A program made the position numbers and the translations under genes. A stretch of 64,000 nt of DNA from Azolla caroliniana (Eukaryota > Plantae > Polypodiophyta): NCBI GenBank assembly GCA_043228905.1, contig JBHGNT010000014.1, forward strand, positions 6,572,001 through 6,636,000, given 5' to 3'. Below are positions 5,881 through 57,700 of the stretch, in pieces (position 1 is the first letter of the stretch; each line of letters starts with the position of its first letter). The notes under the pieces are model-generated. The model searched no databases. It was not told where the DNA came from and worked only from the letters and a program-made list of their open reading frames with translations.

Positions 5881-5935
5881 AAGAAGCTTGACTAGCTTCT
5901 GTTGGGGAAATTTACACACAATCGGCTTGGCCGAA

Positions 5936-6392
5936 TGTTGTCCAGAGGACAGAAATGTAAAATTAGGAAATTAGCAAACGCCGAGTTCGAGTATCATGGG
6001 CCACCGACAGCTCGGCTGTGTATTAGGGGAAAAATTATTTAAACGAGGAGCAGTACCTCAGAGGAGAGGGAGAAGAAAACTATAGGCGGAAGCACTAGCT
6101 TAGTCATTCGAGATTAGATAAACTCGTAAGGTCACCAGCCATAGGCCGTGTTTTGTAATCTTTTCTGCCATAGTAATATATCTTATTTGTGCTTAGTTTT
6201 GCTGCATGAGTTTGTGCTTTGATCCATACCTATGAGTTTCACACCGCCATGTCTATCAAGACCTCGCTAGTGTTTTCTCTCTGAGCCCTGTATCTCTCTC
6301 GACGCCTCTGTTACGAGCCTTCACGTACCACGCCCTTGAAGACCGATAGACGCAGATCTATCGAAGGTGTTCACCCAAAGGAACGGGTAACA
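5936..6392 (+). repeat. 5' LTR of Gypsy I
   Basis: TGTTGTCCAG...GGGTAACA, direct repeat of 15298-15754. Confidence 0.95.
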
Positions 6393-6397
6393 CAATT

Positions 6398-6410
6398 TGG
6401 CACGCCCGGT
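6398..6410 (+). promoter_or_regulatory. Primer binding site, tRNA-Arg(UCU)-type
   Basis: TGGCACGCCCGGT, 5 nt after the LTR, complementary to the plant tRNA-Arg(UCU) 3' end ...ACCGGGCGUGCCA (recalled sequence). Confidence 0.8.
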
Positions 6411-6583
6411 TACAGCTGTGAGTGCATAGCGAACTTCGTTGAAGGTAACCACCAGCCGCCGTTACGGCGCCCTCTCGCACCACAAGGTCTCGGCCACCTG
6501 CCCGACGCCCTGAGCCAGTCGAAGGAACTTCCGACTCGGCGGTCACTGACCAATCCTTTCCCGATCAATCAGAGGCTTGTCCA

Positions 6584-9500
6584 GTGCAATCCTCGCCACT
6601 GGACACTCGATCGCGAGTTGATTCACCACCAGAACCCCTATCGAGCCCTCCGGAGGTCAATCAACCGGAACTAAACCCTTTTCCGGTGCTACCAGAAGAC
6701 CCACAGTACGACATCATGCCGTACCCATACCCACGATATGCCGACGGACCAGACGCGGAGTCACACGTCCGTGCCTTCATATCCACGTGGCAGGCTAACC
6801 ACTCCACGCACCGCCTCACGCTGGCCGAAATCGATGCCTCGAAGATTGCCGAGTTCAGACTCTCCCTCGATGGACCGGCCGCACGATGGTACTCTCGCCT
6901 CGAAATAGGAGAGGCCACCACTTTCCAAATTGTGCGCACAAAGTTCCTTGAACTTTTTCATCGCGAGGTGCCTAAATGGGAACTGCTCCGGCAATTCTTC
7001 TCTATATGCCAGGAACCGCACGAAATGGTCGCGCAGTTCACGATCCGGTTCTAGGATCTCTACAGACAAGTGGCTGATGATGTCTCGGCACAACATATAC
7101 CGGACACTTTCCTATCCAGTTTAAGAGAGCCTCTATGAACGACTCTCGCACTTACAAATTTCGCCAACCATACTATCGAACAAGTCATAGCGCGCGTTCT
7201 CGCCCTCGATCAGAACCAACACGGCACGACTTTCTCGATGACATCCTTACAAAATGCTCTTCCCCAAGAGGACAATCGCTTTCGCCAAGCCCTCCAATGC
7301 ACTGCGTGTTCAGGATCAGGGCACCTGGCCCTCGAATGTCCCCACCGACCACAGTGTCCGATCTGTCAGTCTCGAGCTCACACGGTCGAGCAGTGCGAAT
7401 ATAATATGCTGAACCACACAACGACGGCACCAGTCCGCCAGATTGAGCCACGAAATACATACTCTCGGCAGGACGAGCGATATATCTACCGAAACCAGGA
7501 TAACGACCAACCGCGATTCCCGGATCGATGGCGCCGGGACGACGACTACCAACGTGATAACCGCCGTGATTATTATCGCGATGACTGGCACGACGATTAT
7601 GCTCGATACGACGACGATCGCGATGATCGGTATGACCGAAGAAACTCACGCATTGATCGGCGAAACGGCAACCGCAACACACGCAACAATAGAAGACCTA
7701 ATCACAACCGCCGACGAGACTCTCCTCAACAGGACCAGCGCAACTCCAACGCACCTCGGAACAACCCACCAACAAACGAGACCAAGGATCAACAACAACA
7801 GCTTCCACACACAGACCGAGCGGACACCAGCAGCTCGGCCAACGTGACATGTTTTAAATGTAATCAACCAGGCCACTACGCCACGCAATGTCCGACAACC
7901 AACCGTGGCAAGGCACCCGCGGTGAACAATATCATGGCCGATGTTCAAACAGTCACTACCCGGAGTAAAGCGCAGACTACTCAGTGGCAAATCCAGGATG
8001 ACGTACGATAGGCAGCAAAAGAATGGGTCGACACGGCCAATAAAAATAATGCCATACGCATGCAAACTGACATGAGGGACGGGCCCAGTGAAGTACCACA
8101 AACCTCGGCACCATCCACGTCGTCGGAGGACGATCAACTATGGGATGTTCTTACCAACTCCCGCATCTCGTTGCCCCTACATAAACTGCTACCACTCATG
8201 CCGAGATTTCGGGACACCCTGGCGGCACTCCAGGCCAATACTAAGCCCGTGATGCCACCGGTACACCTCACCGAAGCAGGAACCGGTCCACCACTCATGG
8301 ATTCTCAGAACCCAGCCGTGCGAATCATCATTAAGGGACAAGAGCTGCACGGATGCATCATCGACGGCGGATCCGGTGTAAACGTTATTAGCGAGTCAAC
8401 GTGTCTCAACCTCGGCTTGAAGCAATGGGAACCATGCCCCTTTTGGCTTCGGATGGCCGACACCCGCTCTATTCGCCCCATTGGTTTAATCCGCCATCTC
8501 GACTTCACACTCGGAGGCCACATGTTCACGATCTCGGCCGTCGTGTTACGACTGGAGACACAAGGCGCCTACCCAATGTTACTAGGTCGACCATGGTTGC
8601 GTACAACGAATATCAAGCAACATTGGCAACGCAACATGATCTCGTTCCGAAGAGGGAAGACAAAAGTCCGAATCATCACTGAAGAATGAGTCCCCGTCGC
8701 CCTCAACACTTCGCCGTTATACGCGGAAGGGGTCCATATGCTCGACGGGTTGGCCGATGAGGAGGTTGATGACTTCCTAGATGATCATCCCACGATCATC
8801 CCTCTCTTCGAAATCAATGCCTTACCAACCATCGAGCCATCTAAAGACGAGGAAGTCACGGAGGAGTCACCACCCCAGGATGAACCCGATGCAACCACAG
8901 TTGCCGAGCTACATCATGCTCGGGAGGCTTTCGAACGCGAACTCGCCATTTCACAACGAGTGAAAGCATCAACCCTGGAAACAATAAACCTCGGTTCGGA
9001 TGAGAATCCCTGTACGGTACAAATTGTTAATAATCTACCAACCGGCGAACGGGCATGCCTCGTAAAATTACTCACCGACTACCAGGATGTTTTCGCTTGG
9101 TCTTACACCAATATGAAGGGGCTGGATCCTCAATACTACCAACATCAAATTCACATCTTACCCGACACTCGGCCGGTTCAGCAGAGGCGCTACAGGATGA
9201 ACCCCAACTATGCCGCTAAAGTCAAAGAGGAAATTGACAAACTACTCCGAGTGGGCTTCATTCGCCCTGTTAAACGGGCTACATGGTTGAGCCCGATCGT
9301 AGTGGTCCCAAAGAAGAACGGAAAAATCTGCGTCGACTATCGGAAGCTTAACGCGGCAACGGTCACCGACGGTTTCCCTCTCCCATTCACGGATAGCGTC
9401 CTCGACATGGTCGCCGGCCACGAATGCTACAGTTTCCTCGACGGGTTCAACGGCTATAACCAGATAAGAATGCACCCGGAGGATCAGGAGAAAACTGCTT

Positions 9501-11822
9501 TCGTCACGGAATGGGGTGTTTTTGTAGCAGAAGTTATGATGTTCGGTCTAAAAACGACGCTGGCTACGTTCCAGCGCATCATCACCGAAATCTTTCATGA
9601 CTACATCCCGGCGTTCATGCAAGTCTTTCTCGACGATTTCGCCGTGTATGGCCATCGACGGGAACACATGACCCAGTTACGACTCTGCCTGGACCGATGT
9701 CGTCAAGCTCGATTGAGTTTAAACCTGGCGAAATGCGCGTTCTTAGTCACCAGCGGCAACCTTCTTGGCCACATTGTCAGTCAAGAAGGCATCGCTATGG
9801 ACCCGGATAAAGTAAAGGCAATCCTGAATGCCACCGCACCCTCAAACGCTAAGGCACTAAGGCGTTTTTTGGGACAGATCCGGTGGCACAGCCGAATGAT
9901 ACGACACCTGGACGATTTCGCTACATCCTTACACTCGGCAGTCCATCGCCTTCCTTTCCAATGGACGTCAATCGAGGACACGGCCTATCAGACCCTGAAA
10001 CGAACGCTGTCACATGCCCCGGTGGTCCAGTCTCCAGTTTGGTCTGAACCGTTTCATGTCTTTGTAGATGCTTCGGACATCGCCATTGGAAGTGCTCTGA
10101 TGCAATGCACACCCCCGAATTGGTATAGGCCCGTGTACTACGCCAGGCGATGGCTCTCGACCGCGGAAAAGAATTACTCCACCACCGAGCGGGAGGCCGA
10201 AAATTTCGGCATTACCTCTTGGGCCGAAAATTTACCTTTCACGTGGATCACTCGACCCTTCTTTATTTGGTCAATAAACAAGCCCTCACTGGATGGTTGG
10301 CTCGGTGGATGCTCCTACTACAAGAGTTTGATTTTCAGATTCAGCATCAACCCGGGGTACAACATGCCGTCGCTGACTACTTGAGCCGTCTTGAGTTAGG
10401 AGAACCGGCGAAAACAATGTACGACGAGCTACCGGATGCCAGCCTATTTAACCTGACCACAGTACTAGACAATAACGGAGATGAATGGATCACGGAGATG
10501 ACCCATTTTCTCACTACCGGTGTACCTCTCGAGCACATGACCCTTGACACGAGAAAACGCCTAGCAGTGCGTAGCCGGAATTTTTGCCTCGTCTCGGACA
10601 TTCTCTACCACAAAGGCTCGGACGACATATGGCGCCGAGCGATTCGGCAATTCGAGAAGAACGCCGTTCTTCAGGAAGCCCACCAGGGAGTAGCTGGGGG
10701 ACACTACGCCGGGGATTCCACGGCAAGGAAAGTTTGGCAAAGTGGATTATGGTGGCCGACAACGAAGAAAGACGCTCACGAGTTTTGCCGGCAGTGCGAT
10801 TTGTGCCAACGTCTGGGGCAACCAATGGAACAGTCACGGATGCCACACTAGCCAATTCTTCCGTTGGACCCATTTCAAAAATGGGGTTTGGATTTTGTAG
10901 GCCCTTTCAAACCACCCGCGGCCCGAACAGGGAATAGGTATATTATCGTTGCCACAGATTACTGCACCAAATGGGTCGAGGCTAAGGCACTCCGAGATAA
11001 CACGACGGCATCCACGACTAAATTTGTGTACGAGCACCTCTGGTGCCATTACGGATGTCCAATCGAGCTCGTTAGTGACCAAGGTGGGCACTTCATCAAT
11101 CATATAATACGTGAGCTTACACACCACTACGCGGTGGTGCACAAGAAAAGCACACCATACTACCCGCAGGCGAACGGCTTGGCCGAATCGACCAATAAAA
11201 TCCTCCAAACCATACTGAAGAAGATCATCAATGAAAACAGGACCGATTGGGATGACAAACTCCAAATCGCGCTGTGGGCGTATCGTACGACTTTCAAAAC
11301 AAGCATCCAATCGACCCCCTTTCGAATGGCGTTCGGGTTAGAAGCCGTAATGCCCGTCGAGTTCCAAGTGCTGAGCCTCCGAGTTCAAGTCAAAGCATAG
11401 CTCCCCGAGGCCGAATCCGAGCAATACCGGCTGAAACAACTCCTCGAACTCGGGGAAGATAGGATAGAGAGTATGGCCCAGCTTGAACAACGCCAACGGC
11501 AACGCAAGGCTTTCGTGGATCAACATCGACATGGGCTGGAGAAGGAGCTCACCATCGGCAAACCAGTTCTTCTTTTCCAAACACGACTCGGGTCAATGCC
11601 GGGAAAATTAAGATTCCGGTGGACCAGTCCATTCTGGATTATCGACGAGTTCAACGAGACGTTCTAGCTTGGCACACTCGCCGGCGACACGGTCAAAAGC
11701 TGGGCCAATGGTTTTCGACTTCGACCATATCGAGGGACTACACCACCCAACCCGTTTACCGAGCCACACGGCACAAACAAGACTCGGGAGATCACCACGG
11801 AGGACGCCACGTGTCCCCTTGA
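6584..11822 (+). pseudogene. gag-pol of Gypsy I, interrupted by stops and frameshifts
   Basis: Gag with CCHC knuckles (CTACSGSGHLALEC, CPICQSRAHTVEQC, CFKCNQPGHYATQC); PR IIDGGSGVN; RT CVDYRKLN...FLDDF; RH VFVDASD; [25 protein letters not shown]. Confidence 0.93.
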
Positions 11823-12346
11823 ATAACCTTCTTGAAATTAATAAAAGTAGTAGTAGGTAGGATTAACCATAGTTTAGCCACTGATTAGCTACACCTACAC
11901 CACCCTCCTAGGCACCCACAATTTTAGGAGCACCCCTCGCCACCACTCAGTTAGTACCTATTTAAGCTGTTCACACATGCAAAGCACATGCAAAGCACTA
12001 GAAGCACCCCACTCACCTTCAGGACACGTGGTGCTAGTCACTTATTATGGCACCCACGACTCAGAATCTTCAGGATTCGCTTCAGGCACAAAACCCTAGG
12101 AATAAGTTACTAGAACCGTTTCCAAAATGCAACATAGACCATTATCGCTCCCCATCTCCATCGCTCTCAAGATCAGAAACCCCGTCTCGCCCTCATCACG
12201 CTAAGCGCTCTTGCTCTCAAGCCTTCTTTCGCTCTCATAACCTCTCTACTGGACTTCCCCTTCCTGCTGTTCCTCCTGTGGCTCGCCCTCGCCTCATCAC
12301 TTTGCTTCACGCTTCCACACAGTCGAACCCCGCCTCCATCTCCACC

Positions 12347-15199
12347 ATGCCTCTTACTGCCTCAACAGAAACTCGCGCCTGGCTCCAGGAACGAGGAATG
12401 GGCGGTTACCTGAAGATCATCGATGCCCTCGCACACGAACCCAACGAGCATGCCGCAGAACAAGGCAGCCATCATCATCAGCGCGTATGAAGGAAACAAA
12501 ATCGATTGGGGAATCATCACAGGCGAGGGACTCCGCGCCGCCTTAGCTTCATTTCAGTCCGGTAAGAAGATGTTGTCTGTTCTTACCCACTTTTTGATGG
12601 TTCTATACCCACCCTCTTCGCTTCCTTCCCCTCGCACACTCACGTCCCCACCACCACCACGAAGGCAGAGAGAGAAATCGTGTCCATCAGCCACGAAGCA
12701 TGGGAGGAGCCCACATCGCCTTCACCCCCTGCCGCCGACCAAAAAACCGCATCTGCACCACCACCCGCCCAACCCCAACAAAAAAGGGTAGTTTCCGAGA
12801 CCTGCCAAGAATGGGAGGAGGAGGTAGCCGTAGAAGACAACACGGCCGATGATGTCACCATTCGACAGCCAACGTCGCGCCCCTCGGTAACTTCCCCAAC
12901 ACCTAGCCCACACCCCAACACACAGCAGGCTGCACCACCACGATCCCAGAAAAGGAAGCAGGCGGAGGAAACGACACTACCGGCCTCGGAACCCCAAACA
13001 CAGCCAAGCAAGAGAAGACGACTCAACCGTGAGTCCTCAGAAGAATAGAAGGAGCCACAATAGGAGCAAGCCTTAGTGGTTAGATAGAGCAACCTGGCCA
13101 TCACCCCTGCGGAGGCATCGCTGAACCAGGGAACGATCGAGCATGGGCAGACAACATAGATCTCGGAGGATGAAGTCCTTGGGTATAAGGACCTCCCCGC
13201 AGAGGCTTACGAATTTAGTGCGCTCCTACGCCTCGGTATGTCATTCGAGCTGGTCGACTTCCTCGCTAGAGCCCAAGTTGCGGCAGCCGCTCGAATGGCG
13301 GAAGAGCACGCCGAAACAAAAATGATTCAACGCGTGCTAATAGGTGAAATTGAGCCCCAGGAGGACAGGTCTTTACAAAAATTTGGGAGGAAGAAGCAGG
13401 CAAAACAGGCCGCTCTCCTCATGGAGGTCCCCGAGTTGAACACGGCCCTTATCGAGGCATATCGGGACCTGGATCGCACTACGCGGCCAGCCAAAGACAT
13501 GGCCCGAAAGATAAAAATAGCCCAAAAACAGGCTAAGATGGCTACAGAATTATGGCACGCTGCGAACCAGAAGCTGGCAGCCTGGGAGCAAAACCGGCCG
13601 GAACAACAACTCCTGAGCCTTCCGGTAACGACCACCGAGGCCCTCCCAGCGCCTCCACGCATAACAATGATGGATGAAAGCACCATCACCGACTCAATCC
13701 TGAAGGTGCATGCCAGTACACAAACGAACTCGTTACAAATGGTCAATGCCTGCACAACAACCGAGGTGGCCATGCCCATGGAGCAGACCGAGATACCCCC
13801 ACCTCGTGCACCCAAGGAGGTGGCAACCCAGACAGAACCCCCGCTCCGGGATTACCGTGCGGAGCTTAAAGAAGAACAACGGCGAACCGAGAGACATGAA
13901 CAACGGCATCAAGAGGCGATGGCTCGCCTAAAAGAAGAAGCTTCCAAGTAGATGGCCGAGATAAGAGCCCAGGCCGACCAAAGGATACACGAGCAGAACG
14001 AAGCACTGGGCCGGGTACAAGCGCAAGCCGCGGGCAAGGAAGCCGAACTCAAAAGCAAGCTGGAGGAATACGCAGCCACAATGGTGAAGAAAGAGCAGGA
14101 GGTTCTAGACCTACAGGCCGCGCTCGACAATGCAAAAGACTGGAACCAGCGGCAGGAGGAAAGAAATCGCCAATGGGAGGAGAGGATGAATGCGGAGAAT
14201 GCCGAGTTGCAGAGTCAGCGTACAACCCTTAAAGAGATGGATGACGAGTTTTTCATCAAATGCAAGCTACTTTCAGAGCAAAAAGATGCCTTATCGGATT
14301 CTTACTTCGCCCTACAAGAAGAGAGAATCGTCGAACGAGAACAAATCCGGGCCACGTGTCAGAAAGAACGGGAGCAGGCTACCGAAGAACTCACCAAGCG
14401 TTACGAGCAGGCTCTCCAGCTCGTAACCGCGGATGCAAAGAACACTCAGGCCATCTATGAGCTAAGAACACAGAAGATTCAGGCCGAGGTCGACAGCTTA
14501 AAACAGGAATTAGTAGCCATCCGAGCACAGCCCGACATGGATGAGACACGCATCCGAATACTAATCGAGAAACAACGCCAACACCTTACCAAAAAGGTTG
14601 AGGAAACATTAAGTCGCGCAGGAGACGAATGGGCAGCCCAAGCTGACGAATTGCATATTTTACGCGCCGACGCTGAGAACCGACAGAAAGAGGGCCGCGG
14701 CTTCTACAAAATGGACGAAGCCAGCATTCAAAACCTGCGTGCAGATTTAACCGAGGATTACCAGTCCTTGGCAAAATCTCACACCGCGGCAATCGAGCAA
14801 ATAATGGAGGACTTCAATGACGGTCAGATGCTGTTTCGCCTAGAAGCAGAAGCCTTCGAACGAGAACGACTCGCAGCCATCCCCACTAGCCCTCCAACGG
14901 CCACAGAGCAGAAAGAAGAACTTCCCAGCAAGGAGATCACGGACACGGCACAGGAGGAACTTGCCCCGGCCAACAGACATCCCATGGACGCCCACACGGT
15001 ACTAGAGCCTGTCGAAGTGGAGGTCAGCGCCCACGAACCCCCACCCCCACTAGAAGAATCGGCCGCACCTGAGGCGGACGTCCGAGAAGATATGCCACCC
15101 CCGGACCAAACTCAACCCCCCGCACCGACAGTCCAACCAGACCACCCTGCCACCACCCCGGACCCCGAAAGCATCCTTGACATCTTAAAGGAGGAATGA
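12347..15199 (+). pseudogene. Extra sense ORF (~950 codons) downstream of integrase: globular N-terminus, Pro/Ser/Thr linker, long coiled coil
   Basis: ORF pieces 12047-12490, 12680-13048, 13238-13951 and 13952-15199 share one frame; from 12680 on they are broken only by in-frame TAG stops. E/K/Q/A-rich heptad-like region at ~13850-14870. Confidence 0.75.
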
Positions 15200-15297
15200 A
15201 ACGAGGATCACGCCTAAACGGCAATTTTTGTAATATTGTTAGTATTTTGTAAGTCGTGGGTCCGACGGACAAGGTCCTGTCCCACGGGCGTGCCAGG

Positions 15298-15754
15298 TGT
15301 TGTCCAGAGGACAGAAATGTAAAATTAGGAAATTAGCAAACGCCGAGTCCGAGTATCACGGGCCACCGATGGCTCGGCTGTGTATTAGGGGAAAAATTAT
15401 TTAAACGAGGAGCAGTACCTTAGAGGAGAGGGAGAAGAAAACTATAGGCGGAAGCACTAGCTTAGTCATTCGAGATTAGATAAACTCGTAAGGTCACCGG
15501 CCATAGGCCGTGTTCTGTAATCTTTTCTGCCATAGTAATATATCTTATTTGTGCTTAGTTTTGCTGCATGAGTCTGTGCTTTGATCCATACCTATGAGTT
15601 TCACGCCGCCACGTCTATCAAGACCTCGCTAGTGTTTTCTCTCTGAGCCCTGTATCTCTCTCGACGCCTCTGTTACGAGCCTTCACGTACCACACCCTTG
15701 AAGACTGATAGACGCAGATCTATCGAAGGTGTTCACCCAAAGGAACGGGTAACA
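15298..15754 (+). repeat. 3' LTR of Gypsy I
   Basis: Direct repeat of 5936-6392, followed by TSD CCGAA. Confidence 0.95.
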
Positions 15755-16289
15755 CCGAACAGAATGATACAACATTGCAATAGAAGCATAGAAATAGAAT
15801 AGAGATGGAGATTAAATAGAGATGAAGACCATACAAAGAGTATGCACCAAAACCGGAGACCACACCTTCATTCATGAAAAACAACCCGTACTTACAAACA
15901 TGCTCAGAGAGTATCTTATATACAAAGCCCTTTATTCCTCTAATAATGGTAGAGGGTTGACCAAGCCGAATAGAATGATACAACATTGTAATAGAAGCAT
16001 AGAACACAGGGTATGCACCAAAACCGGAGACCACACCTTCATTCATGAAAAACAACCGGCACCTACAAACATGCTCAGAGAGCATCTTATATACAAAGCC
16101 CTTTATTCCTCTCATAATGGTAGAGGGCTGACAAGAGTACAATCGGCTCATTTATGAGCATTGAATTCTAACTTTACTAACTTCTAACTTAATTAGATTC
16201 TATCTTTAATAGTGCTAGTGAACCGAGTTGAGCTTGGTATATGAACACTCCCCCTCAAGCTCAAGTATGGTGTCAGCTTTTGGCTTACA

Positions 16290-25946: not shown

Positions 25947-28034
25947 CCTTCTCGTGATTCTCACACACTCTTTCCTTTGTTAGTACTAATTCTCATATCT
26001 TCTTATCCCCCCTGTCCTTCATACAAATCCTCTTATCCTTCATTCCTCCAATACTATGGTGTTGAGTGGACAAGCTCAACCGGATCCGGATCCAGATCAA
26101 AGTCTGGAATGAAGAACCGGATCGGTGTCCGGATGGTATCCAGAACCAGGATTCGGATTGGATTACAACCGGTAGGTCGTAAGACGCCTACGAATCTAGC
26201 CTAGTACGTAGGCATATTTTTAGGAGTCAGTGTCAATCGCTCGTATGAGCATTGAAGTACATGTCAGTACTTCTGTCAGTCTGTGTAAGGACTTGTATAA
26301 AAGTGCTCACTAAGCACATTGTATATATAAAGCGTTATTATTTTGAATTGAGTTGATGCTATTATGCTCTCTCTGTCTCTCCCATGAACTGTGTATTCTA
26401 AGCTTCCATTAAACCTGTGTTTATTCTCTATTGCTATCCGGTGCAACCGGTTTTGTCAAACCTTCCGCATATTAACTTTCACATGGCATCAGAGCGTGAG
26501 GATTGAGAACCTCTACTGTGGACGAGATTTCCAAAGACAAACTCTAACTTCCGAAAAAGCACAGACCGAAAAGAAGGAAGATATGGACCGAAAAGCACAG
26601 ACGGAAATGCTCGACTGGAGCAATTATGGATCCTAGTCATGTAAAATGCACCAGTACCTGCTTGGGCATAAATACATGACCTACGTGGAAGGAGCAAATG
26701 TAGCAACGTTGGATTCAACACACAAGGATTTCACGGTATGGGAGCAAGGAGCAAGCAGAGTGTTGTATTGCCTTGCATCCTGTATGCATGACCAGATGGT
26801 CGGCTACATCAGGGATGCAAAAACGCTGAAAGAGGCCTGGGAAAATCTCTAGAAGATTTTCGCCGCAAGTACCACAACTCGGAAGTTACAACTCCGGCAA
26901 GAGCTCAATAGTATCCGGTAATGGGACATGTCGGTCACCGACTACAACACCAAGATGAAGGAGATCTGTGACGCGCTCGGTTCCATCAACGTGATGGTGG
27001 ACAAGGAAGAGATGGTTCAGATCTGCCTTGGTGGTCTAGTACAATGGTACGGGCCAAACCGGACAACGATTTGTACCCGGGAGAAACCACCATTCTTCTT
27101 CGACCTGCAATCTATGTTGAGTGGGTCAAGGACCACTCAATCTGACAACCGGATGTTGTACACGGAGGCGGATCGGCCCGTGGGCATGGAGGGCATGGTG
27201 AGTTAGCAGGCAATAATGTCGGCCGGCAAGAGCAGAACCGGAGGCACAAAGATAGTGTCGACAAAAGTTCCAAACCCTCCACAAGTAGGGGGAGTCAAGG
27301 CGGTGCCGGGAGCCGTCAAGAGAAGACTGCGGACTATTGGTATTGTGGCCAAAAGGGCCACAAAGAGAGTGAGTGTTGGAAGAAGCGCGTGGATTCGGAT
27401 AAATCCGGTTCTGGTAAGGCCGGACAGTGGAACCAACATAGCTCCCACTACACAGAAGGATAGAAAGGATTTGGAACCGGAAAGACCAGAAAAGGGCCAA
27501 CCTTTGTGATGAAACACAAGGGGAACTCGATGAAGAAGACCACTTCCGAATCAGAAGAAGTGTGGTCATTGACTCCGGAGCATCTAACGATATGACGAGT
27601 CAGGTAGAGTGGTTCTTGTCAGGAATAGTACTAAGACAGAGAAGGAATTAGTACTAAAAGAAGTATTAGTACTAAGAGAGGTGAAGAACTCTCGAGAGAA
27701 GGAAAGAGTGAGTGAGAGAGAGGGAGAGAGAGATCGAGAGAGAGAGAGAGTGATGATAAGAAAAGATATATATTATGTGAAGAAAATGTATAGTAGCTAG
27801 GAGGCTTAAGACTAGTGTTGAACCGATTTGGTTCGAAATAATGCCTTGTGCCTCCTTTTATAGTGTTCTAAGGAATACTCCTGAAGTTTCTAGAATGTTC
27901 CAGAGAAATCTGGAATATACATCAATTTTCTATAATAAAACATAAATGAAAAATAATATTCTACGTATTACAATGTATAGTCTAATGGTCAAGAGCTCGA
28001 CCCATGTAGCATAAGGTCATGGGTTCGAGTCTTG

Positions 28035-31000
28035 TCCTAGCCAATCGACTAGATAGTAGAGCTTGTTGCCAACAAGCTTGGAATCAAGGATGGCGGCAAC
28101 CTCGTACTCAGGTCCATCTTCAAGCTCAATCGGGGGTGGAGGCTGTGTAATACGTCCTGGGATGGTGCTCTCTTGATAGGGTTCGAGGAGAGAACTATGA
28201 AACACCGGATGTATCCGAAGTTGTGGAGGTAGATCAAGACGAAAAGCGACATCATTAATCTTTCCTATAATACGGAAAGGACCTAATCGCCGATAATCCA
28301 ACTTCTCGCATGGGCGAGTGGTCCTGATGTGTCATCGGAGTAGTCATACCCGATCTCCAATGTTAAAACTAGATGGGAGTTGATGACGATCCGCATAAAC
28401 CTTGTGTGTTTGTTGAGCTTGTTGGAGGTGAGTAGATACGTCCGCTTGTATCTTGCGTAACCTCTCCAAACGATCTTCTGCGCAAGGATTTGTGGACACC
28501 TCTAGGGTTTCAAGTACACACCACCGGGGGTGACATCTCGTATAAGCATAAAATGGCGTAACTTTAGTGGATGCGTGGATAGAGTTGTTATAGGCAAATT
28601 CGGCGAAGTGGAGGATATTTGCCCAGTCATCCTGATGATAGCTGAGAAAGCACCGCAGATACTGCTCCAACGTTTGATTGGTTCGTTCGGCTTGGCCATC
28701 GGTTTGGGGTGGTAGCCGGAGGAGAGGTTACAAGTGACCTTGAGCATGTTAAAAGGGTGCTTCCAGAATTTTGACATGAACTGGGTTCCACGGTCGCTGA
28801 TGATACTATCGGGAAGTCCATGATGCCGACATACTTCACGCATGACAATTTCGGCAATGTCTTCACTAGAGATCTCCTTAGTACATGGCAAGAAATGAGC
28901 CATCTTCGTATATCGATCGACCACCGTTAGAATCGCATTGAACCCCTTAGAGACTGGAAGATCTGTGATGAAGTCTAGAGCAATAGATTGCCACGGCTTG
29001 CTTGGAATTGGTAATGGTTCTAATAAACCATATGGATGATGCCTTGGCATTTTCGCTCTGCAGCATGTATCATAAGTCCGAACAAAATCCTCGACAAATT
29101 GTCGCATACAGGGCCACCAGAATGATCGTTGTACTAAATGTAATGTTTTAGTACTACCAAAATGCCCAGCTGTATATGTGTCATGACAGTTTTGTACTAC
29201 TTGAAGGTGGCAAGAACCATTAGGAACATACAAAAGTTCTTTAAAGAAGAGTAATCCATCATGGTATTTGAATTGCCGATAGTCCGTACCTGGTGGTTGC
29301 GATTGTGAACACAACGCTCGAGAGGGATCAATTTGTGCTAGTATAGCTTGGGCAAACGCATCTGTCTTCAAGTCTTCGTGTATGGTATCGATAACGCGGG
29401 AATCCATGGGCATGTCAAAGATCTGTGTTGCTTGTAGTCGTGCTGGTCCCAAGATGACTTGTTTTTGGTTATCGAAAGCTGGCTCGCCGGGACGGGGTGC
29501 TAGATACGAACGCCGTGATAATGCATCTGCCTTCCCTTGGTGCTTCCCCGGACGATAGTAATTTTGAAGTCAAAACGCGTGAGGAAGTGGGCCCACCGAG
29601 CTTGACGTCGATTCAACACACGAGCATCCTGAAAGTAGGCAAGGTTCTTGTGGTCACTAAATACAGTGACCGGATGAGAGGATCCCTCTAGAAAATGCCT
29701 CCATTGCATAAAAGAATCCACTATTGCTAATAGCTCCTTATCATGAATTTCGTAGTTGATTTCAGCGGTGTCAAACTTGCGTGAGTGAAAAGCCACAGGA
29801 TGTAGCTTCTCATCATTCCCCTGTTGTGACAGAATGCTCCCCAATGCAAAATCCGATGCGTCAGCTTCGATAATGAATGGTTTTTCCGGATCGACATGAG
29901 CTAGAATTGGAGCTGATGTAAATGCCTTTTTAAGACTCTCGAAAGCCATGTCCGTTTCTTCAGACCAGATGAACGGTTGTCCCTTCCTGGTAAGTTGTGT
30001 GAGAGGTAGAACGATCTTTGAGTAATCTTGTATGAACTTCCGGTAAAAATTGGCAAAGCCTAGGAAGCATTGCACATCCCGCACCGAACGCGGAGTCTGC
30101 CATTCTACCACCGTTTTGACCTTAGCTGGGTCCATGGAGATGCCTTCTGACGAAATGATGTACCCGAGAAATTCCACTTGGTTGCACCCGAAACTACATT
30201 TTTCCAGCTTTGCATACAGACCATGTTCTCGAAGTCGTTTTAGTACTAATAGTACATGAGAATCATGTTCTTCTTGGGTCTTTGAATAAACCAGTAGATC
30301 ATCCAAATAGATGATCAAACAATCATCCAATAGATCTCGGAATATATCATTAGCCATGTGCTGAAAGACTGCTGGCGCATTAGTGAGACCGAACGGCATG
30401 ACCGTATACTCGAAGTGCCCATATCTGGTGCGAAAACACGGTCTTCCATTTGTCTCTTGGTCGGATCCGTACGAGGTTATATGCTCCCCCCGTAAGTCGA
30501 TCTTCGTGAAGAACCTGGCACCATTGATCCGTTCTAAAAGACTTGAGATAAGGGGAAGAGCATACCTATTCCTGATTGTAACCTTATTCAGGCCACGATA
30601 ATGTACAACGAGACGAAGCGATCCATCCTTTTTCTTGACGAAGAAAATGGGCGCGCCAACTGGAGATTTCGAATGCCGAATGAAACCATTTTCCAAATTC
30701 TCCTCTATATAGGCCCGAAGGACTTCCAGCTCAGTTGGTGACAAATTGTAGATCGGTCCCCATGGCGGCTCTTTTCTTGGTTGTAAATCGATGGGGCAAT
30801 CGTACGGTCGATGATGAGAAAGTGTGTTGGCTTGTACTTTATCGAACACATCGATGTAATGACGATACTTCTTGGGAAGTTGAACGGTGGATTCTTCTTT
30901 AGTGGTGCTGGAGGGGTTTACTGATATTGCAAAGAGGAACATTTCTTCCTTGCGCCCTTCTTTATGCAACTGACAGAGCGAAATGGTTGCCATCTTCTGA

Positions 31001-31435
31001 GTTGACCCTTGGGTTTGTCGACACCGGATTTCTCTTGTTCTCCAATCTATGTCTGGGTTGGAACTCGAACCACGGTAATCCTAAAACTATGGGATGTTCT
31101 GGGATACTAATAATATTAAATGATACTACACATGCTAAGTTATCTAGGACAATATTAATGGGCTCTGACTCTTCTATGATATTTCCGGAAGCAATGGGAC
31201 GTCCATCAATGACTACTACAGAGGCTGGACACTGGAGTTTTCTTAGGGATATCTTATGAGCTTGAGCAAATTTCTTATCCATAAAGCAAGAGTTAGCTCC
31301 GGAATCTAGGAGTGCTAGGACATGTACTGGAGGGGTACTTTTAGTACTAACTATTACTTGGGCTACGAACACATCACTAACTTGCTTAGAGGGAATGGAA
31401 CCACTAATGGGCTGCACAGATCTAGGGCTGTCCAA
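28035..31435 (-). pseudogene. Pol of chromovirus B (frameshifted, chromodomain truncated)
   Basis: PR LLDSGA, RT YLDD, RH EADASD, INT IALDFITDLP and chromodomain start EYEVAAILD, spread over several frames. Confidence 0.9.
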
Positions 31436-31461
31436 CCAAACGGCTCCTATTTTGGCTGGAC

Positions 31462-32613
31462 TTAGTCGTTTAACTCTTCTTCTAACTGACTAAGGACATC
31501 AAATCTGTTTGCTAGATCTGGGCTATTAGTACTATTAGGACTATCAGATATCCCTACTGAAATAGGCTCGGGTTTAGTACAATTAGAACTATCGATTATT
31601 TGGTTTACCTGTCTTCTTGGCCTATGGGGGCAATTTATTGCAATATGTCCTGGTCCACCGCAGTAAAGACATAGTCGATTTGTACGGCGTCGTTGCTTTT
31701 CTTCTTCGGATAATGGCCCTCGACGACGTGTAGTGTCAATCTCCATCGGAGTCGGAGTATTCGCTGGAGGCGCATTATATGACTCCCTCGGAGAAGGTCT
31801 TGATACCACTGAGGCGTAGGTGGGCTTTGATCTTGCCCTCGGCATTTGTAGCTGTCGTTCCGAACGTCGCTCAAAGAGGCGGTTGTCACATCTCACCGCA
31901 CGACTGATTGCTTCTGTTAAGGACTTTGGCTCTTCGGGGAAGGTCAAGAGTAAATCCTTGACGTCATTGTGTAAACCATAACAGAATTGCTCCATCAATG
32001 CTTGATCATCCCAAGGGATATCGGCAGCGAGTAGGTGAAAATCTGCAGCGTATGCAGAGGCTGGACGGTCACCTTGGCGTAATTGCCGAATTTTGTTGAT
32101 TGCGGTCCTGATGCTGTCAGTATCTCCGAAACATGCTTTAAACTCACCTAGAAACTCTTCAAAATTGTTGAGTAACGGAGATTCCTTTTCTAATAGTGGA
32201 GCGAACCATGCCAACGCTGAGCCACTTAACAAAGTGCCTACTAAACCCACTCGTGATGCATCGGTGGGATATCGGGAAGGATGCATTTGAATAACTAATC
32301 GTACTTGGTTAAGGAACCCTCTAAACTGCGATCGCGTTCCATCGAACTTCGTGGGAAGGCCAATCTTGGGTTCTTTATGAATCCCTTGTGTTCCGGGCCC
32401 TTGTTGTTGCATCGCTACGATGGTGGCTTCGAGTTGTTGCACGCGTAACGCAAGTTCCCCATGCTGTTGTTGCGTTTGCTGCTTTTCTAAGGAGATTTGC
32501 TGAAGATCCCCCAACAACCGTTGGTTTTCTTGTTCCAAAGCATGGAACTTCTCTTTCAAGCATTGAAATTCCGAGAAAACAGATTGATATTCTTCAGCGC
32601 TAACAATGGCCAT
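31462..32613 (-). CDS. Gag of chromovirus B (383 aa, open)
   Basis: EPKIGLPTKFDG, PTPMEID and CLYCGGPGHIAINC motifs; near-identical to 53485-54654. Confidence 0.88.
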   Translation of the reverse strand: MAIVSAEEYQSVFSEFQCLKEKFHALEQENQRLLGDLQQISLEKQQTQQQHGELALRVQQLEATIVAMQQQGPGTQGIHKEPKIGLPTKFDGTRSQFRGFLNQVRLVIQMHPSRYPTDASRVGLVGTLLSGSALAWFAPLLEKESPLLNNFEEFLGEFKACFGDTDSIRTAINKIRQLRQGDRPASAYAADFHLLAADIPWDDQALMEQFCYGLHNDVKDLLLTFPEEPKSLTEAISRAVRCDNRLFERRSERQLQMPRARSKPTYASVVSRPSPRESYNAPPANTPTPMEIDTTRRRGPLSEEEKQRRRTNRLCLYCGGPGHIAINCPHRPRRQVNQIIDSSNCTKPEPISVGISDSPNSTNSPDLANRFDVLSQLEEELND

Positions 32614-35600
32614 GGGATGAAAGAAAAGAGGAATAAGAGATTAGTAGGAAATGAGGGAGACAGAAGGTAAGGAAAATCGGTTCAAACTGTCAGGAACAAT
32701 ACTAAGACAGAGAAGGAATTAGTACTAAAAGAAGTATTAGTACTAAGAGAGGTGAAGAACTCTCGAGAGAAGGAAAGAATGAGTGAGAGAGAGGGAGAGA
32801 GAGATCGAGAGAGAGAGAGAGAGATGATAAGAAAAGATATATATTATGTGAAGAAAATGTACAGTAGCTAGGAGGCTTAAGACTGGCGTTGAACTGATTT
32901 GGTTCGAAATAATGCCTTGTGCCTCCTTTTATAGTGTTCTAAGGAATACTCCTGAAGTTTCTAGAATGTTCCAGAGAAATCTAGAATATACATCAATTTT
33001 CTATAATAAAACATAAATGAAAATAATATTCTACGTATTATAATGTATAGTCTAATGGTCAAGAGCTCGACCCATGTAGCATAAGGTCATGGGTTCGAGT
33101 CTTGCCATATCATGACAGTTCTTGTTTCTAGAGAGGGTGGAGCAACTAGGAGTTGTCAAAAACGGAGATGACACTCCTCACCAAATCATGCATGTCTGAG
33201 AAGTTCCCTTGAGTCATGTTGGGCAAAAGGGGAACCTTATGAATGAGCTTCACGTCCCAACAATCACAAAGAACTTGGTGTCGGTCGGACAGATCGTCGA
33301 CCAGGGGATGCAGGTGCAGTTAATGTACCTCGGGTGCTTCACCGAGGAAGAGGGCCAAGTCATTGTGCAAGGGCGCCAAGATGGGAGGGAGGGTGTTTAT
33401 CCTTGACATTAACGACATTGGCATCGCTATGTTCACAAAAGGGCAGAAGCTCGAATCGGATATTGACCTGTGGCACTAGCGGATTGGCCACGTCAACTAC
33501 CGGAGGCTTCAGGACCTGTAATTGAAACAAGTTGTTTCCGGATTGCCAAAATTTAGTGGCCGAAAGGCCCAAATTTGTGAAGCCTGCCAACGCGGGAAGC
33601 AACACCGGCTTCCATTCCCCACTGAAAGAAACCAGAGCCAGAACAAGCTCAATGTAATACATTCGGACGTATGGGGACCGACATAGAACGTTAGTCTTGG
33701 TGAGAGTCGATATTTCGTTACCTTCATCGACGACTACAACCGGCACACGTGGATCTACCTCATCGAGAAGAAACACGAAGTTTTCGATTGTTTCCGGAAC
33801 TTGTAGAGTTTAGTTGAATGGGAAATGGAAAGGAAGATCAAGTGCATGTGGTCGGATGGTGGAAAAGAATACTTTTCTGGCCAATTCAAACGGTATGGGT
33901 ATAACAAGTACATGGCGCATCACTATGTGTACATGACGAAGGTGGCGGAAGTGCATGAGCCAGAGAGCTATGCAGTAGTGGCAAAAGATGCACAATAGCA
34001 TGCCGCTATGGAGGAAGAGATGCGGGCACTTGATGCCAACAACACATGGGACCTGGTTGACCCTCCCCAACATTGCAAATAGATCGGTTGTAAGTGGGTG
34101 TACAAGGTGAAGTATAATGTTGATGGTTAGGTCAACCGGTACAAGGCCCGGTTAGTGGCCAAAGGATACGTGCAGACCCACGAAATCGACTACGACGAGA
34201 CTTTCGCTCCGGTAGCGAAGATGACGACAGTTCGTGTGGTGCTAGCGGTTGCTACAGCAAGGGGATGACAACTTCACCAAATGGACGTGAAGAATGCATT
34301 TCTTCAAGGCGATCTTGAAGAAAACAGGTCTACATGATCCAAGCCCTCCGTTTCTAGTCAGAGAAGAACAAGTCGGTAGTCAGCCGACTCATAAAGTCCC
34401 TTTACGACTTGAAGCAGGCCCCCGTGCTTGGAATTTGAAGATCACGCACCGGTTGCGTAAGATGGGCTTTGCGGCCTCCAAGCCGAACTCCTCATTATTC
34501 ATCCGGAAAGGTCCGGACGGTCCGGTATGTATTCTGTTATATGTGGATGATCTAGTCATCACTGGACCCAGACTTGCTGAAATCAATCGAGTGAAGTTCC
34601 AACTGTCGGACGCATTCGAAATGAAGGACCTGGGAGACCTTCATTACTTCCTTGGGATCGAAGTGATCCACACCCCTGACGGCATATTGTTGTCCCAACA
34701 AAATTATGTGTTGAATATGTTGTACAAGTTTGGTATGATGATTTGCAGACCGATCTTGACACCCCTGGACCAGAACCTAAAGCTTCATCCCGACTCTGAA
34801 CCGGCCTGCGATGAGAAACTGTTTCGACAAATCGTCGAAAGTCTTATTTATTTGATGATCACCCGACCTGCCATTAACTATCTAGTCGGAGCAATAAGTC
34901 AGTTCATGTATAAGCCGACTATGGAGCACCATTTGTGCGCGCACTGAATATTGAGGTATGTTAGCGGCAGTAAGGACCAGGGACTGTTATACCGATGTGG
35001 TATAACCGAGAAGCTAGTCGGATATACAGATGCTGACTGGTCCGGAGACACGTTGGATCGACAATCCACTTCCGGATTCATGTTCTCTACTGGTAGCACG
35101 AATGTTGCATGGAGCAACAAAAAACAAACAAATGTGGCTCTATCGAGCACTGAGGCTGAGTATTGGGGCGCTACTGTTGCCATCTGTGAAGCCATTTGGC
35201 TTCATCAACTACTGTGAGACCTTCGGATCGAAGTAACGACTCCGATCACGATCTACTATGACAACATGAGCAACATGCAGCTGGCCAAGAACCCCGTGTT
35301 CCATGCTTGGACGAAGCACATAGAAGTACATTATCACTTTGTACGCGAGCGGGTCCGAAACGGTGAAATAGAACTCCGGTATGTTCGGACGGATCGATAG
35401 GTTGCCGACATCTTCACTAAGGCCCTTGGGACTGACAAGTTGCAACACTTCTCGGAGATGCTTGGTTTTCAACATCTCTACATACCTCACTTGAGGGGGA
35501 GAAAGGAGGAAATCATAAAGGCCGGTAATGGCACTGGAGAGAAGGAAACTGGAACCGGGGGAGACAAGAAGAAAAAGGATGCCGAGACAACTGAAGAAGT

Positions 35601-52948: not shown

Positions 52949-53397
52949 TGTCATAACTAGACTCGAACCCATAACCTTTTGTTACACGGGTCGAGACTTT
53001 ACCATTAGGGTATGAATTGTAATTTGAAAGATATTATTTTCATTTAGGTTTTATTGGGAAATTGATGTATATTCCAGATTTCTCTGGAACATTCTAGAAA
53101 CTTCAGGAGTATTCCTGAAGACACTATAAAAGGAGGCGCAAGGCATTAGTTCGAACCAAATCGGTTCAACGCCAGTCTTAAGCCTTCTAACTACTGTTGT
53201 ATATCTTCCGTCATATAATACATATATCTTTCGCATCATCATTCTCTCTCTCTCTCTCTCTCACTCATTCCTTCTCTCAAAGTTCGACACCTCTCATAGT
53301 ACTAATCCTTCTCTGTCTTAGTACTATTCCCCAACAATAGTACTAATCCTTCTTTTAGTACTAATTCCTTCTCTGCCTTAATAGAGTTCCTGACAGT

Positions 53398-53409
53398 TTG
53401 AACCGATTT
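53398..53409 (+). promoter_or_regulatory. Self-priming PBS (Tf1-type)
   Basis: TTGAACCGATTT is the exact reverse complement of LTR 53158-53169 AAATCGGTTCAA, ~33 nt downstream of TATAAAA (53125). Confidence 0.85.
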
Positions 53410-53484
53410 CTGTCTACTAGTCTCCCTCTTCCTTCTGTCTCCCTCCTTTCCTACTAGTCTCTTATTTCCCTTTTCCTTCATCCC

Positions 53485-54654
53485 ATGGCCACCGTTAGCG
53501 TTGAAGAGTATCAATCCGTTTTCTCGGAATTTCAATGCTTGAAAGAGAAGTTTCATGCTTTGGAACAAGAAAATCAACGCTTGTTGGGGGATCTTCAGCA
53601 AATTTCCTTAGAAAAGCAGCAAACGCAACAACAGCATGGGGAACTTGCGTTACGCGTGCAACAACTCGAAGCAACCATCGTAGCAATGCAACAACAAGGG
53701 CACGGAGCACAAGGGATTCATAAAGAACCCAAGATTGGCCTTCCCACGAAGTTCGATGGAACGCGATCGCAGTTTAGAGGGTTTCTTAACCAGGTACGGT
53801 TAGTTATTCAAATGCATCCGTCCCGATATCCCACCGATGCATCACGAGTGGGTTTAGTAGGCACGTTGTTAAATGGCTCAGCATTAGCATGGTTCGCTCC
53901 GCTACTAGAAAAGGAATCTCCAGTACTAAATAATTTTGAAGAATTCATAAGTGAGTTTAAAGCATGTTTTGGAGATACTGACAGCATAAGGACTGCAATC
54001 AACAAAATCCGGCGATTACGCCAAGGTGACCGTCCAGCCTCCGCATATGCTGCAGATTTCCGCCTACTCGCCGCCGATATCCCCTGGGATGATCAAGCAT
54101 TGATGGAGCAGTTCCGCTATGGTCTACGCAACGATGTCAAGGATTTACTCTTGACTTTCCCTGAAGAGCCAAAATCATTAACAGAAGCAATCAGTCGAGC
54201 GGTCAGATGTGACAACCGCCTCTTCGAGCGACGTTCGGAACGACAATTTCAGATGCCGAGGGCAAGATCCGAGCCTACCTATGCCTCAGTGGTAGCGAAA
54301 CCTTTTCAAAGGGAGTCACATAATGCGCCTCCAGTAAGTACTCCAACTCCAATGGAAATTGACACTACACGTCGTCGTGGGCCGCTATCGGAGGAGGAAA
54401 AGCAACGACGCCGAACAAACCGATTATGCCTTTATTGCGGTGGACCAGGGCATATCGCGATAAACTGTCCCCATAGACCAAGAAGGCAGGTAAACCAAGT
54501 CATTGTTAGTTCTGACTATACTAAACCCGAGTCTATTTCAGTAGGAATCTCTGATAATCCTCATAGTCATAATAGTCCTAATAGTACTAATAGTCTGAAT
54601 CTCGCAAACAAATTTGATGTCCTTAGCCAATTAGAAGAAGAGTTAAACGACTAA
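53485..54654 (+). CDS. Gag (389 aa) of chromovirus C
   Basis: N-terminal coiled coil, EPKIGLPTKFDG capsid motif, CLYCGGPGHIAINC knuckle. Confidence 0.93.
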   Translation: MATVSVEEYQSVFSEFQCLKEKFHALEQENQRLLGDLQQISLEKQQTQQQHGELALRVQQLEATIVAMQQQGHGAQGIHKEPKIGLPTKFDGTRSQFRGFLNQVRLVIQMHPSRYPTDASRVGLVGTLLNGSALAWFAPLLEKESPVLNNFEEFISEFKACFGDTDSIRTAINKIRRLRQGDRPASAYAADFRLLAADIPWDDQALMEQFRYGLRNDVKDLLLTFPEEPKSLTEAISRAVRCDNRLFERRSERQFQMPRARSEPTYASVVAKPFQRESHNAPPVSTPTPMEIDTTRRRGPLSEEEKQRRRTNRLCLYCGGPGHIAINCPHRPRRQVNQVIVSSDYTKPESISVGISDNPHSHNSPNSTNSLNLANKFDVLSQLEEELND

Positions 54655-54700
54655 GTCCAGCCAAAATAGGAGCCGTTTGGTTGGACAGCCCTAGATCTGT
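54642..54700 (+). promoter_or_regulatory. -1 ribosomal frameshift signal
   Basis: G TTA AAC heptamer at 54642-54648, 6-nt spacer, 11-bp stem GTCCAGCCAAA/TTTGGTTGGAC. Pol is in the -1 frame, open from 54627. Confidence 0.8.
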
Positions 54701-57700
54701 GCAGCCCATTAGTGGTTCCATTCCCTCTAAGCAAGTTAGTGATGTGTTCGTAGCCCAAGTAGCAGTTAGTACTAAAAGTACCCCTCCAGTACATACCTTA
54801 GCCCTTCTAGATTCCGGAGCTAATTCTTGCTTCATGGATAGGAATTTTGCCCGAGCTCATCAGATATCTCTCAGAAAGCTCCCATGTCCAGCCTCAGTAG
54901 TAGTCATTGATGGTCGTCCCATTGCTTCTGGTAATATCATAGAAGAGTCGGAACCCGTTAATATTGTCCTAGATAACTTAACATGTGTAGTATCATTTAA
55001 TATTATTAGTATTCCAGAACATCCCATAGTTTTAGGATTACCATGGTTCGAGTTACATGACCCAGACATAGATTGGAGGACAAGGGAAATCCGGTTGCGA
55101 CAAACCCAAGGATCTACCCAGAAGGTTGCAACCATTTCGCTACGTCAGTTGCGTGAGGAAGGGCGCAAGGAGGAAATGTTTCTCTTTGCAATATCAGTAC
55201 AACCCTCCAGCACCACCAAAGAGGAGTCCACCGTTCAACTTCCCGAGAAGTATCGTCAGTATGCTGATGTGTTCGATAAAGTACAAGCCAACACACTTCC
55301 TCATCATCGGCCGTACGACTGCGCCATCGACTTACAACCGGGAAAAGAGCCGCCATGGGGGCCGATCTACAATTTGTCACCAACCGAGCTAGAAGTCCTT
55401 CGAGCCTATATAGAGGAGAATTTGGAGAACGGTTTCATTCGGCATTCGAAATCTCCAGCCGGCGCACCCATTTTCTTCGTCAAGAAAAAAGATGGCTCGC
55501 TTCGACTCGTTGTAGATTACCGTGGCTTGAATAAGGTCACAGTAAGAAATAGGTATGCTCTTCCCCTTATCTCAAGTCTTTTAGAACGGATCAACGGTGC
55601 CAGGTTCTTCACGAAGATAGACTTACGAGGAGCCTATAACCTCGTACGGATCCGACCAGGAGATGAATGGAAGACCGCGTTTCGCACCAGATATGGGCAC
55701 TTCGAGTATACGGTCATGCCGTTCGGACTCACTAATGCGCCGGCAGTCTTCCAGCACATGGCGAATGATATATTTCGAGATCTCTTGGATGATTTTTTGA
55801 TCATCTATTTGGATGATCTACTGGTTTATTCAAAGACCCAAGAAGAACATGATTCTCATGTACTATTAGTACTAAAACGACTTCGAGAACATGGTCTGTA
55901 TGCAAAGTTAGAGAAATGTAGTTTCGGGTGCAACCAAGTGGAGTTTCTCGGCTATGTCATCTCCTCAGAAGGCATATCTATGGACCCAGCCAAGGTCAAA
56001 ACGGTGATAGAATGGCACACTCCGCGTTCGGTGCGGGATGTGCAATGCTTCCTAGGCTTTGCAAATTTCTACCGGAAGTTCATACAAAATTACTCAAAAA
56101 TTGTGCTGCCTCTCACACAGCTCACCAGGAAGGGACAATCATTCATTTGGTCTAAAGAGACGGACATGGCTTTCGAGAGTCTTAAGAAGGCGTTTACATC
56201 AGCTCCAATTTTAGGTCATGTGGATCCGGAAAAACCATTCATTATCGAAGCTGATGCATCGGATTTCGCATTGGGGAGCATTCTGTCACAACAGGGTAAC
56301 GACGAGAAGCTACATCCTGTGGCTTTCCACTCCCGTAAGTTTGACGCCGCCGAAATCAACTACGAAATTCATGATAAAGAGCTATTAGCAATAGTTGATT
56401 CTTTTATGCAATGGAGGCATTTCCTGGAGGGATCTCCTCATCAGGTCACTGTATTCAGTGACCACAAGAACCTTGCCTACTTTCAAGATGCTCGTGTACT
56501 GAATCGACGTCAAGCTCGGTGGGCCCACTTCCTCACACGCTTCGACTTCAAAATTACATATCGTCCGGGGAAGCACCAAGGGAAGGCAGATGCATTATCA
56601 CGGCGTTCGTATCTAACACCACGTCCCGGTGAGCCAGCTTTCGATAACCAGAAGCAAGTAATCTTGGGTCCAGCACGACTGCAAGCAGCACAGGTCTTTG
56701 ACATGCCCGTGGATTCCGACATTACCAATACTATACGTGAGGACTTGAAGACTGACGCTTTCGCCCAAGCTATACTAGCACAAATTGACCCCTCTCGAGC
56801 GTCATGTTCACAATCACAATCACCAGGTACGGATTATCGGCAATTCAAATACTGTGATGGATTACTCTTCTTTAAAGAACTTTTGTATGTTCCTAATGGT
56901 TCTTGCCGCCTTCGAGTAGTACAAAACTGCCATGACACATATACAGCAGGACATTTTGGTAGTACTAAAACATTAGATTTAGTACAACGATCATTCTGGT
57001 GGCCCCATATGCGACAATTTGTCGAAGATTTTGTTCGGACTTGCGATACATGCTGCAGAGCGAAAATGCCAAGACATCATCCATATGGTTTATTAGAACC
57101 ATTACCAATTCCAAGCAAGCCATGGCAATCCATTGCTCTTGACTTCATTACAGATCTTCCAGTCTCTAAGGGATTCAGTGCGATTCTCACAGTGGTGGAT
57201 CGATATACGAAGATGGCTCATTTCTTACCATGTACTAAAGAAATATCTAGTGAAGACACCGCCGAAATTGTCATGCGGGAAGTATGTCGGCATCATGGAC
57301 TCCCTGATAATATCATCAGCGATCGTGGACCCCAGTTTGTGTCAAAATTCTGGAAGCACCTTTTTAAAATGCTGAAGGTCACTTGTAACCTCTCCTCCGG
57401 CTACCACCCACAAACCGACGGTCAAGCCGAACGAACAAATCAAACACTGGAGCAGTATCTGCGGTGCTTTCTCAACTATCATCAGAATGACTGGGCAGAT
57501 ATTCTTCAGTTCGCCGAATTTGCCTATAATAACGCTATCCACGCATCGACTAAAGTCACGCCATTCTACGCTTATACGGGATATCATCCCCGGTGGTGTG
57601 TCCTTGAAACCCCAGAAGTGTCCACAAATCCTTGCGCGGAGGATCGTTTGGAGCGGTTACGCAAGATACAAGCGGATTTATCTACTCAACTCCAGCAAGC

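Follow-up and report, generated by a model that had tools for sequence, protein, structure and literature searches.

How an LTR retrotransposon might start its plus strand without a polypurine tract (PPT) is the question raised by an element that we have found in a 64-kb stretch of Azolla caroliniana DNA, analyzed here over its whole length and called the window below. Parts of PMC5371799 and PMC10886601 treat the use of a PPT to prime the plus strand as a step common to retroviruses and LTR retrotransposons. In the element described here, and at the level of its lineage, the PPT is replaced by a structured copy of tRNA-Arg(UCU) sequence in what is otherwise an ordinary non-chromovirus Ty3/gypsy element. 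The whole element (5936-15754) lies between 5-bp target-site duplications (CCGAA, 5931-5935 on the left and 15755-15759 on the right). Its two LTRs, of 457 nt each (5936-6392, TG...CA, and 15298-15754, starting with TG), differ at 12 positions, all of them transitions. A 5-nt spacer precedes the primer binding site (PBS, 6398-6410), 13 nt complementary to the 3' end of tRNA-Arg(UCU). The Pfam domains detected by a profile scan of the ORFs follow the gypsy order, i.e., gag, zinc knuckle, RT, RNase H and integrase. The gag gene (6449-8011; Retrotrans_gag with a CCHC knuckle) is interrupted and pol (8012-11840; RT, RNase H and integrase) carries stops and a frameshift, indicating an old and broken copy. 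The Chromo profile had no match in the ten ORFs scanned, in which the integrase tail was also read, and the control element has one. The spacing of RT, RNase H and integrase is compact like that of Athila-like loci and unlike the expanded Tat-like loci, and the acidic residues of RNase H are kept across the RT clade of the element. Downstream, an extra ORF of ca. 880 codons (12566-15199), coiled-coil-like and containing stops, ends in ILDIL-x-stop, as it does in the relative L082 described below. It had no Pfam match, and its 17 homologues, all from metagenomes, bear no informative name. Every long ORF of the element is encoded by the plus strand, and no second copy of it was found within the window.

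The peculiarity is located between this extra ORF and the 3' LTR. The preliminary description of this DNA had reported no purine tract there, and indeed no purine run in the 20 nt before the LTR exceeds 3; the nearest run of at least 9 starts at 15187, within the extra ORF. G-rich PPTs are present in three further LTR elements of the window. A fourth, a minus-strand chromovirus at 27617-33104, was left unscored, the start of its 3' LTR and its PPT having apparently been cut away. What is found at the junction is a sequence (15256-15295) that copies positions 49-76 of a plant tRNA-Arg(UCU), in the standard tRNA numbering with m1A58 as a mark. The first part (15256-15265) corresponds to positions 49-58, i.e., the 5' strand of the T arm plus the T loop, with a single change (55, T to C). 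Between positions 58 and 59 there is a 13-nt insert (15266-15278) that can form a 4-bp hairpin (15267-15270 with 15274-15277, loop 15271-15273). The last part (15279-15295) corresponds to positions 59-76 minus one C and finishes in CCA, so that a PBS-like site is read on the minus strand. A 2-nt spacer (GG, 15296-15297) separates this CCA from the TG of the LTR at 15298. In all, 26 of the 28 bases match the ArgTCT fragments of PMC8482286, which were used as the tRNA reference in place of the host's own tRNA gene. In the part of that dataset concerned (supplement mmc4), the Arabidopsis and maize ArgTCT fragments have the same T arm and acceptor strand. The tRNA end given in the preliminary description was thus right, and the alignment bears out a T-arm/acceptor copy with a 13-nt insert and a 1-nt deletion. 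As had also been noticed, 15285-15295 and 6398-6408, the first 11 bases of the PBS, are exact reverse complements of each other. This is the longest match to the PBS region within the 100 nt before the 3' LTR, and the chance of that 11-mer ending at 5 nt or less from the LTR is about 1.5e-6, as estimated from base composition. Neither ARAGORN nor Rfam called a tRNA or a known family at the 3' site. We have rejected a Pol III promoter, there being no intact A or B box at this site, and also a full tRNA-like fold, as carriers differ in the upstream DNA.

Relatives of the element were looked for by their RT. The RT searches gave 39 loci from genome_contigs, to which the best 80 of 521 from metagenome_contigs were added; no RT relative appeared in the viral contigs. 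Named RT relatives come from Adiantum, Riccia and Marchantia, which, with the Adiantum proteins of the tree below, would by themselves make a non-seed plant the likely host. A quick ML tree of 96 rows (with no curated references, the careful search being unfinished) placed 17 of them in one clade with an SH-aLRT of 99: the window element, L082, L003, ten other loci and four Adiantum proteins. Among the 13 clade loci with DNA the junction is readable in full in three, the window, L082 and L003, whose LTRs have no shared blastn match over 11 nt. In all three the longest purine run at the junction is 3. By contrast, PPTs with purine runs of 7-11 nt were found at 5/5 readable outgroup junctions (L097, L098, L103, L114 and L148). 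The outgroup locus L097 also has a 6-bp hairpin (about 425-470) a few bases upstream of its ordinary PPT.

In L082 (69% RT identity; probably a collapsed assembly) the tRNA copy with its insert, hereafter the module, is found at 415-455, straight after the ORF ending in ILDIL, and is followed by 2 nt (TG) and an unrelated LTR. It matches that of the window with an E value of 3.7e-7. The GGACA/TGTCC stem proposed in the preliminary description is broken in L082, but the shorter hairpin stem GGAC/GTCC is kept there as GTAC/GTAC, a double, compensatory change. The T arm of L082 carries one extra base, and CTA is found in place of CCA at the same position. L003 is more distant (50% RT identity, both LTRs present), and the hairpin that it carries in this position is another one, of 8 bp. 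After it come 15 of 18 bases of the T70 form of ArgTCT (three changes), the CCA end and 2 nt (AG), while the 5' part is reduced to GGGTT; the T70 form is also among the fragments of PMC8482286 as far as these are given in its supplement. The CCA end is therefore 2 nt before the LTR in the window and L003, with CTA at that position in L082 (3/3 clade junctions). Searches by pattern added little: the 39 matches of a generic T-arm/insert/CCA pattern in viral contigs were taken as background, another pattern search gave two matches, a tRNA-Arg(TCT) of a phage and an unrelated coding sequence, and no further junction came from the contaminated prokaryote genomes. The latter are GTDB prokaryote records with contigs of plant LTR retrotransposons inside them (L003, L005, L009-L013 and L024), i.e., contamination; one example is a 79-kb contig in a Chloroflexia MAG.

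Four DNA runs (organisms A, A, B and C) have Logan contigs that cover the junction as well. In 4/4 runs the summed depth of bin 15274-15287 was above that of the LTR and exceeded that of bin 15232-15245 by 20, 53, 98 and 37 times, although summed contig depth is not a copy number. The only substitutions within 15255-15297, among the 40 of 108 listed, fall at 15272 and 15273, in the hairpin loop, whose bases vary in organism C, and there was no indel in this segment among the 10 of 14 listed. Taken alone, a 54-nt stretch of the junction was covered by 216 contigs in run X1 and 254 in X15, from two organisms, without a substitution or indel being listed and hence without a per-base spectrum; it had no contig in X16 and X17 (organisms D and E), which is not proof of absence. 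Among the 12 of 33 loose ends listed, unrelated left flanks begin at 15251-15257 (agreement 0.47-0.73 in the seven larger ones), accumulating at 15254-15257, and unrelated right flanks at 15301-15302 (X1 and X15). Contigs from three labelled organisms thus carry the module amid unrelated flanks. Having unrelated sequence at both borders indicates one module common to families that differ in their upstream DNA and their LTRs, and its extent is from tRNA base 49 through the first four bases of the LTR.

The preliminary description had put forward, as something to check, that the 3' site covaries with the PBS. It does not. The PBS is of the Arg(UCU) type in the window, Arg(CCG) in L082 and Arg(ACG) in L003, while the 3' sites of all three are Arg(UCU)-like. 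The predicted duplex between the 3' site and its own PBS amounts to -29.1 kcal/mol in the window, -14.5 in L082 and -17.1 in L003. The 3' sites of the relatives would pair better with the PBS of the window (-27.0 kcal/mol for L082 and -24.2 for L003) than with their own. The 11-nt match to the PBS is consequently found in the window copy because there the PBS and the 3' site fit one and the same tRNA. Upstream, the stretch 15205-15215 is predicted to pair, in plus-strand RNA, with the terminal bases of the tRNA copy, two C's of the CCA among them. L082 and L003 have no pairing of the same form. Such a pairing might stop the 3' site from blocking the PBS in those families in which both fit one tRNA.

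The anatomy, position and conservation of the tRNA copy, as well as its independence from the PBS type, are established by these comparisons. As to its function, plus-strand priming by a tRNA, one of the possibilities raised in the preliminary description, stays the best reading: host tRNA-Arg(UCU) probably anneals to the minus-strand DNA and primes the plus strand, as judged from sequence and predicted pairing. Being a tRNA copy in the sense orientation that is split by a hairpin, the module predicts a two-part tRNA-binding site on the minus-strand DNA. Once the minus strand had been synthesized and the RNA removed by RNase H, a second host tRNA would pair with this site, its bases 59-76 (one of them bulged) and 49-58 flanking a DNA hairpin looped out at the 58/59 step. 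The RT would then extend the CCA end across the 2-nt spacer into the LTR, after which the primer would be removed and the 2 nt trimmed by the integrase. Minus-strand priming would stay ordinary, with a tRNA that differs by family.

The predicted cofold is consistent with this scheme. Between the tRNA-Arg(TCT) arm and the minus strand of the window, 27 of 28 bases were paired around the extruded hairpin, with a net energy of -34.2 kcal/mol, against -7.2 +/- 3.0 kcal/mol (best -19.7) for 200 shuffles. The value for L082 was -26.5 kcal/mol, and that for L003 (-14.6) was barely beyond its best shuffle (-14.2). These energies use RNA parameters, a rough model of an RNA:DNA hybrid, and a phage tRNA (L164), one base off the Arabidopsis form, as a stand-in. 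The shuffles are the control, as the other phage tRNA at hand (L163) was too similar to serve. The latter (298-375) is called tRNA Glu(TTC) by ARAGORN and has a T arm and acceptor strand that are nearly those of tRNA-Arg(TCT), possibly as the result of an anticodon switch. Several points count against the pairing or the priming. There are five substitutions relative to the plant tRNA, of which only three would be accommodated as G:U pairs on the minus strand, and the perfect 3' duplex is made shorter by the missing C. In addition, a tRNA:DNA hybrid could itself be a substrate for RNase H.

The alternative that survives best, although we consider it clearly less probable, is that the primer comes from the RNA of the element itself. 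RNase H would spare the tRNA-like hairpin stretch and cut after CCA or CCAGG, leaving a structured substitute of the PPT that the RT would mistake for a tRNA. The sequence features described above would suit such a structured RNA as well, a second host molecule becomes unnecessary, the tRNA copy does occupy the position of the PPT, and the RNase H is intact. Moreover, PPT selection in Ty3 depends on local structure, according to the part of PMC5371799 devoted to it, and in the plus RNA of both the window and L082 a T stem (GTGGG/CCCAC) can form. However, no such stem is predicted when the L003 motif is folded alone, and RNA freshly copied by the RT sits in a perfect hybrid. The plus-strand fold of the 43-nt segment is no better than that of shuffled sequences (z -0.58), which also leaves unsupported the CGTGGG/CCCACG and GGACA/TGTCC stems suggested earlier. 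The upstream DNA is unrelated as far as tRNA base 49, where the module begins, so no whole tRNA fold is available. Pairing accounts more easily for base-for-base identity to a tRNA in unrelated families.

Two other proposals appear to us improbable, and to a similar degree. One is that the 3' site is a true PBS on an antisense transcript, allowing the element to be copied from either strand, or that antisense tRNA priming serves another step. The minus strand does read as an LTR end, 2 nt and an 18-nt-type PBS, with a tRNA match longer than that of the 13-nt sense PBS. Nevertheless, the long ORFs all lie on the plus strand, and the AT-rich spacer that usually marks a genuine PBS junction (as characterized in part of the ATHILAfinder preprint) is at the 5' site. 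The other is that the 3' site serves for packaging, strand transfer or tRNA recruitment, with a remnant of non-purine RNA starting the plus strand. Ty1 and Ty3 do have extended contacts with tRNA outside the PBS (in sections of PMC5371799), but they are complementary to the tRNA on the genomic RNA, while a 3' site in tRNA sense cannot bind tRNA on RNA, and the fixed distance of 2 nt between the CCA end and the LTR also speaks against a role other than priming.

Pairing of the 3' site with the PBS of the same element, by which the RNA would be circularized or the minus strand self-primed, had been contemplated from the beginning. It seems to us very improbable. The window copy has a perfect 11-nt complement with the strong duplex given above, but the complement is absent in L082 and L003, where the duplexes are weak. 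Since the 3' site is independent of the PBS type, neither circularization nor self-priming can be the rule of the lineage, and they would be conceivable only in families with an Arg(UCU) PBS. Even in the window the PBS fits the tRNA over 13 nt, including the base that is missing from the 3' site, and the latter is predicted to be masked by 15205-15215. Finally, the preliminary description had named a copy-specific accident as what would refute its view. Such an accident or chance event (insertion of a tRNA or SINE fragment, or an inverted duplication of the PBS), which the old and broken state of the window copy could suggest, has a negligible probability and is already refuted by the 216 and 254 contigs on the 54-nt stretch in two organisms, the conservation of the module in L082 and the compensatory hairpin.

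The element can be compared with several known systems. With canonical Ty3/gypsy elements and retroviruses (yeast Ty3 as treated in parts of PMC5371799) it shares the LTRs, a tRNA PBS, the gag-RT-RH-INT order and a plus-strand primer site just upstream of U3. The same source gives a 12-nt purine tract resistant to RNase H as the plus-strand primer of Ty3, where our element has a tRNA copy and no purine tract. There is also a likeness to the bipartite PBS of Ty1 and Ty3, in which, as described in PMC5371799 in its account of tRNA binding, two separate segments bind the acceptor stem and the T arm of one tRNA. Both are antisense to the tRNA and serve minus-strand priming on the genomic RNA. The segments of the element are in tRNA sense and split by the 13-nt hairpin, and because of this orientation they would work on the minus strand.

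Among plant groups, the element resembles Athila, Tat/Ogre/Retand, Phygy and Selgy (as covered in portions of PMC6317226) in the absence of a chromodomain, the size of about 10 kb and the 5-bp target-site duplication. Its tRNA-Arg PBS is like that of TatIII/Ogre/Retand and its extra ORF like that of OTA, following the same portions of PMC6317226. Yet in the quick tree its RT clade includes fern proteins and lies apart from the Athila-like and Tat-like loci, and those examined here have PPTs. A conserved PPT junction is also reported for Brassicaceae Athila in part of the ATHILAfinder preprint. Athila differs further by its Asp/Asn PBS, against an Arg PBS and a separate RT clade in the element. 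The Tat group (Ogre, Retand and TatI-III) is marked by an additional aRH domain. Phygy has a 4-bp NCGN duplication and mainly a tRNA-Trp PBS (PMC6317226, in the passages on this group), compared with the 5-bp CCGAA and Arg PBS found here. Sequence derived from tRNA is present as well in another kind of LTR retroelement, the Helenus TRIMs (PMC10886601, in part). However, Helenus/TRIMp3 elements are non-autonomous, their tRNA-like part lies within the LTRs, where it is proposed to act as a Pol III promoter, and both PBS and PPT are retained (same source, same extent). The tRNA part of our element stands outside the LTR in place of the PPT and contains neither an intact A box nor an intact B box. 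The self-priming Tf1 and Tcn1 elements also depart from the standard primer scheme, but for the minus strand (according to portions of PMC6317226), and the Tcn1-like element at 52949-58678 in the window keeps its PPT. Its PBS is complementary to its own LTR, in the style of self-priming. Two Tcn1-like chromovirus LTRs of the window (52949-53396 and 27617-28034) start with a stretch like a tRNA T loop/B box, on the opposite strand and in a hairpin. We found no description of a PPT-less, tRNA-ended lineage in full-text searches of the openly accessible literature. PMC6317226 lists PBS types, and the available portions of its text and Additional file 5 mention no substitute of the PPT.

Putting all this in a wider frame, we lean slightly towards an old Ty3/gypsy lineage of non-seed plants that would do without a PPT and use host tRNAs to prime both strands. 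The minus strand would take a tRNA specific to each family and the plus strand always tRNA-Arg(UCU), which would dock on the single-stranded minus DNA by forming a three-way junction. The two ends of the element would then be mirror images, and either RNA strand might be copied. If confirmed, this would be a new route of plus-strand priming. It would represent a second natural solution to this step, with an RT that starts from a tRNA when the template is DNA and some means of protecting an RNA:DNA primer against RNase H. For annotation, tools that require a PPT will miss such elements, or mis-orient them because on the opposite strand their 3' end looks like a PBS.
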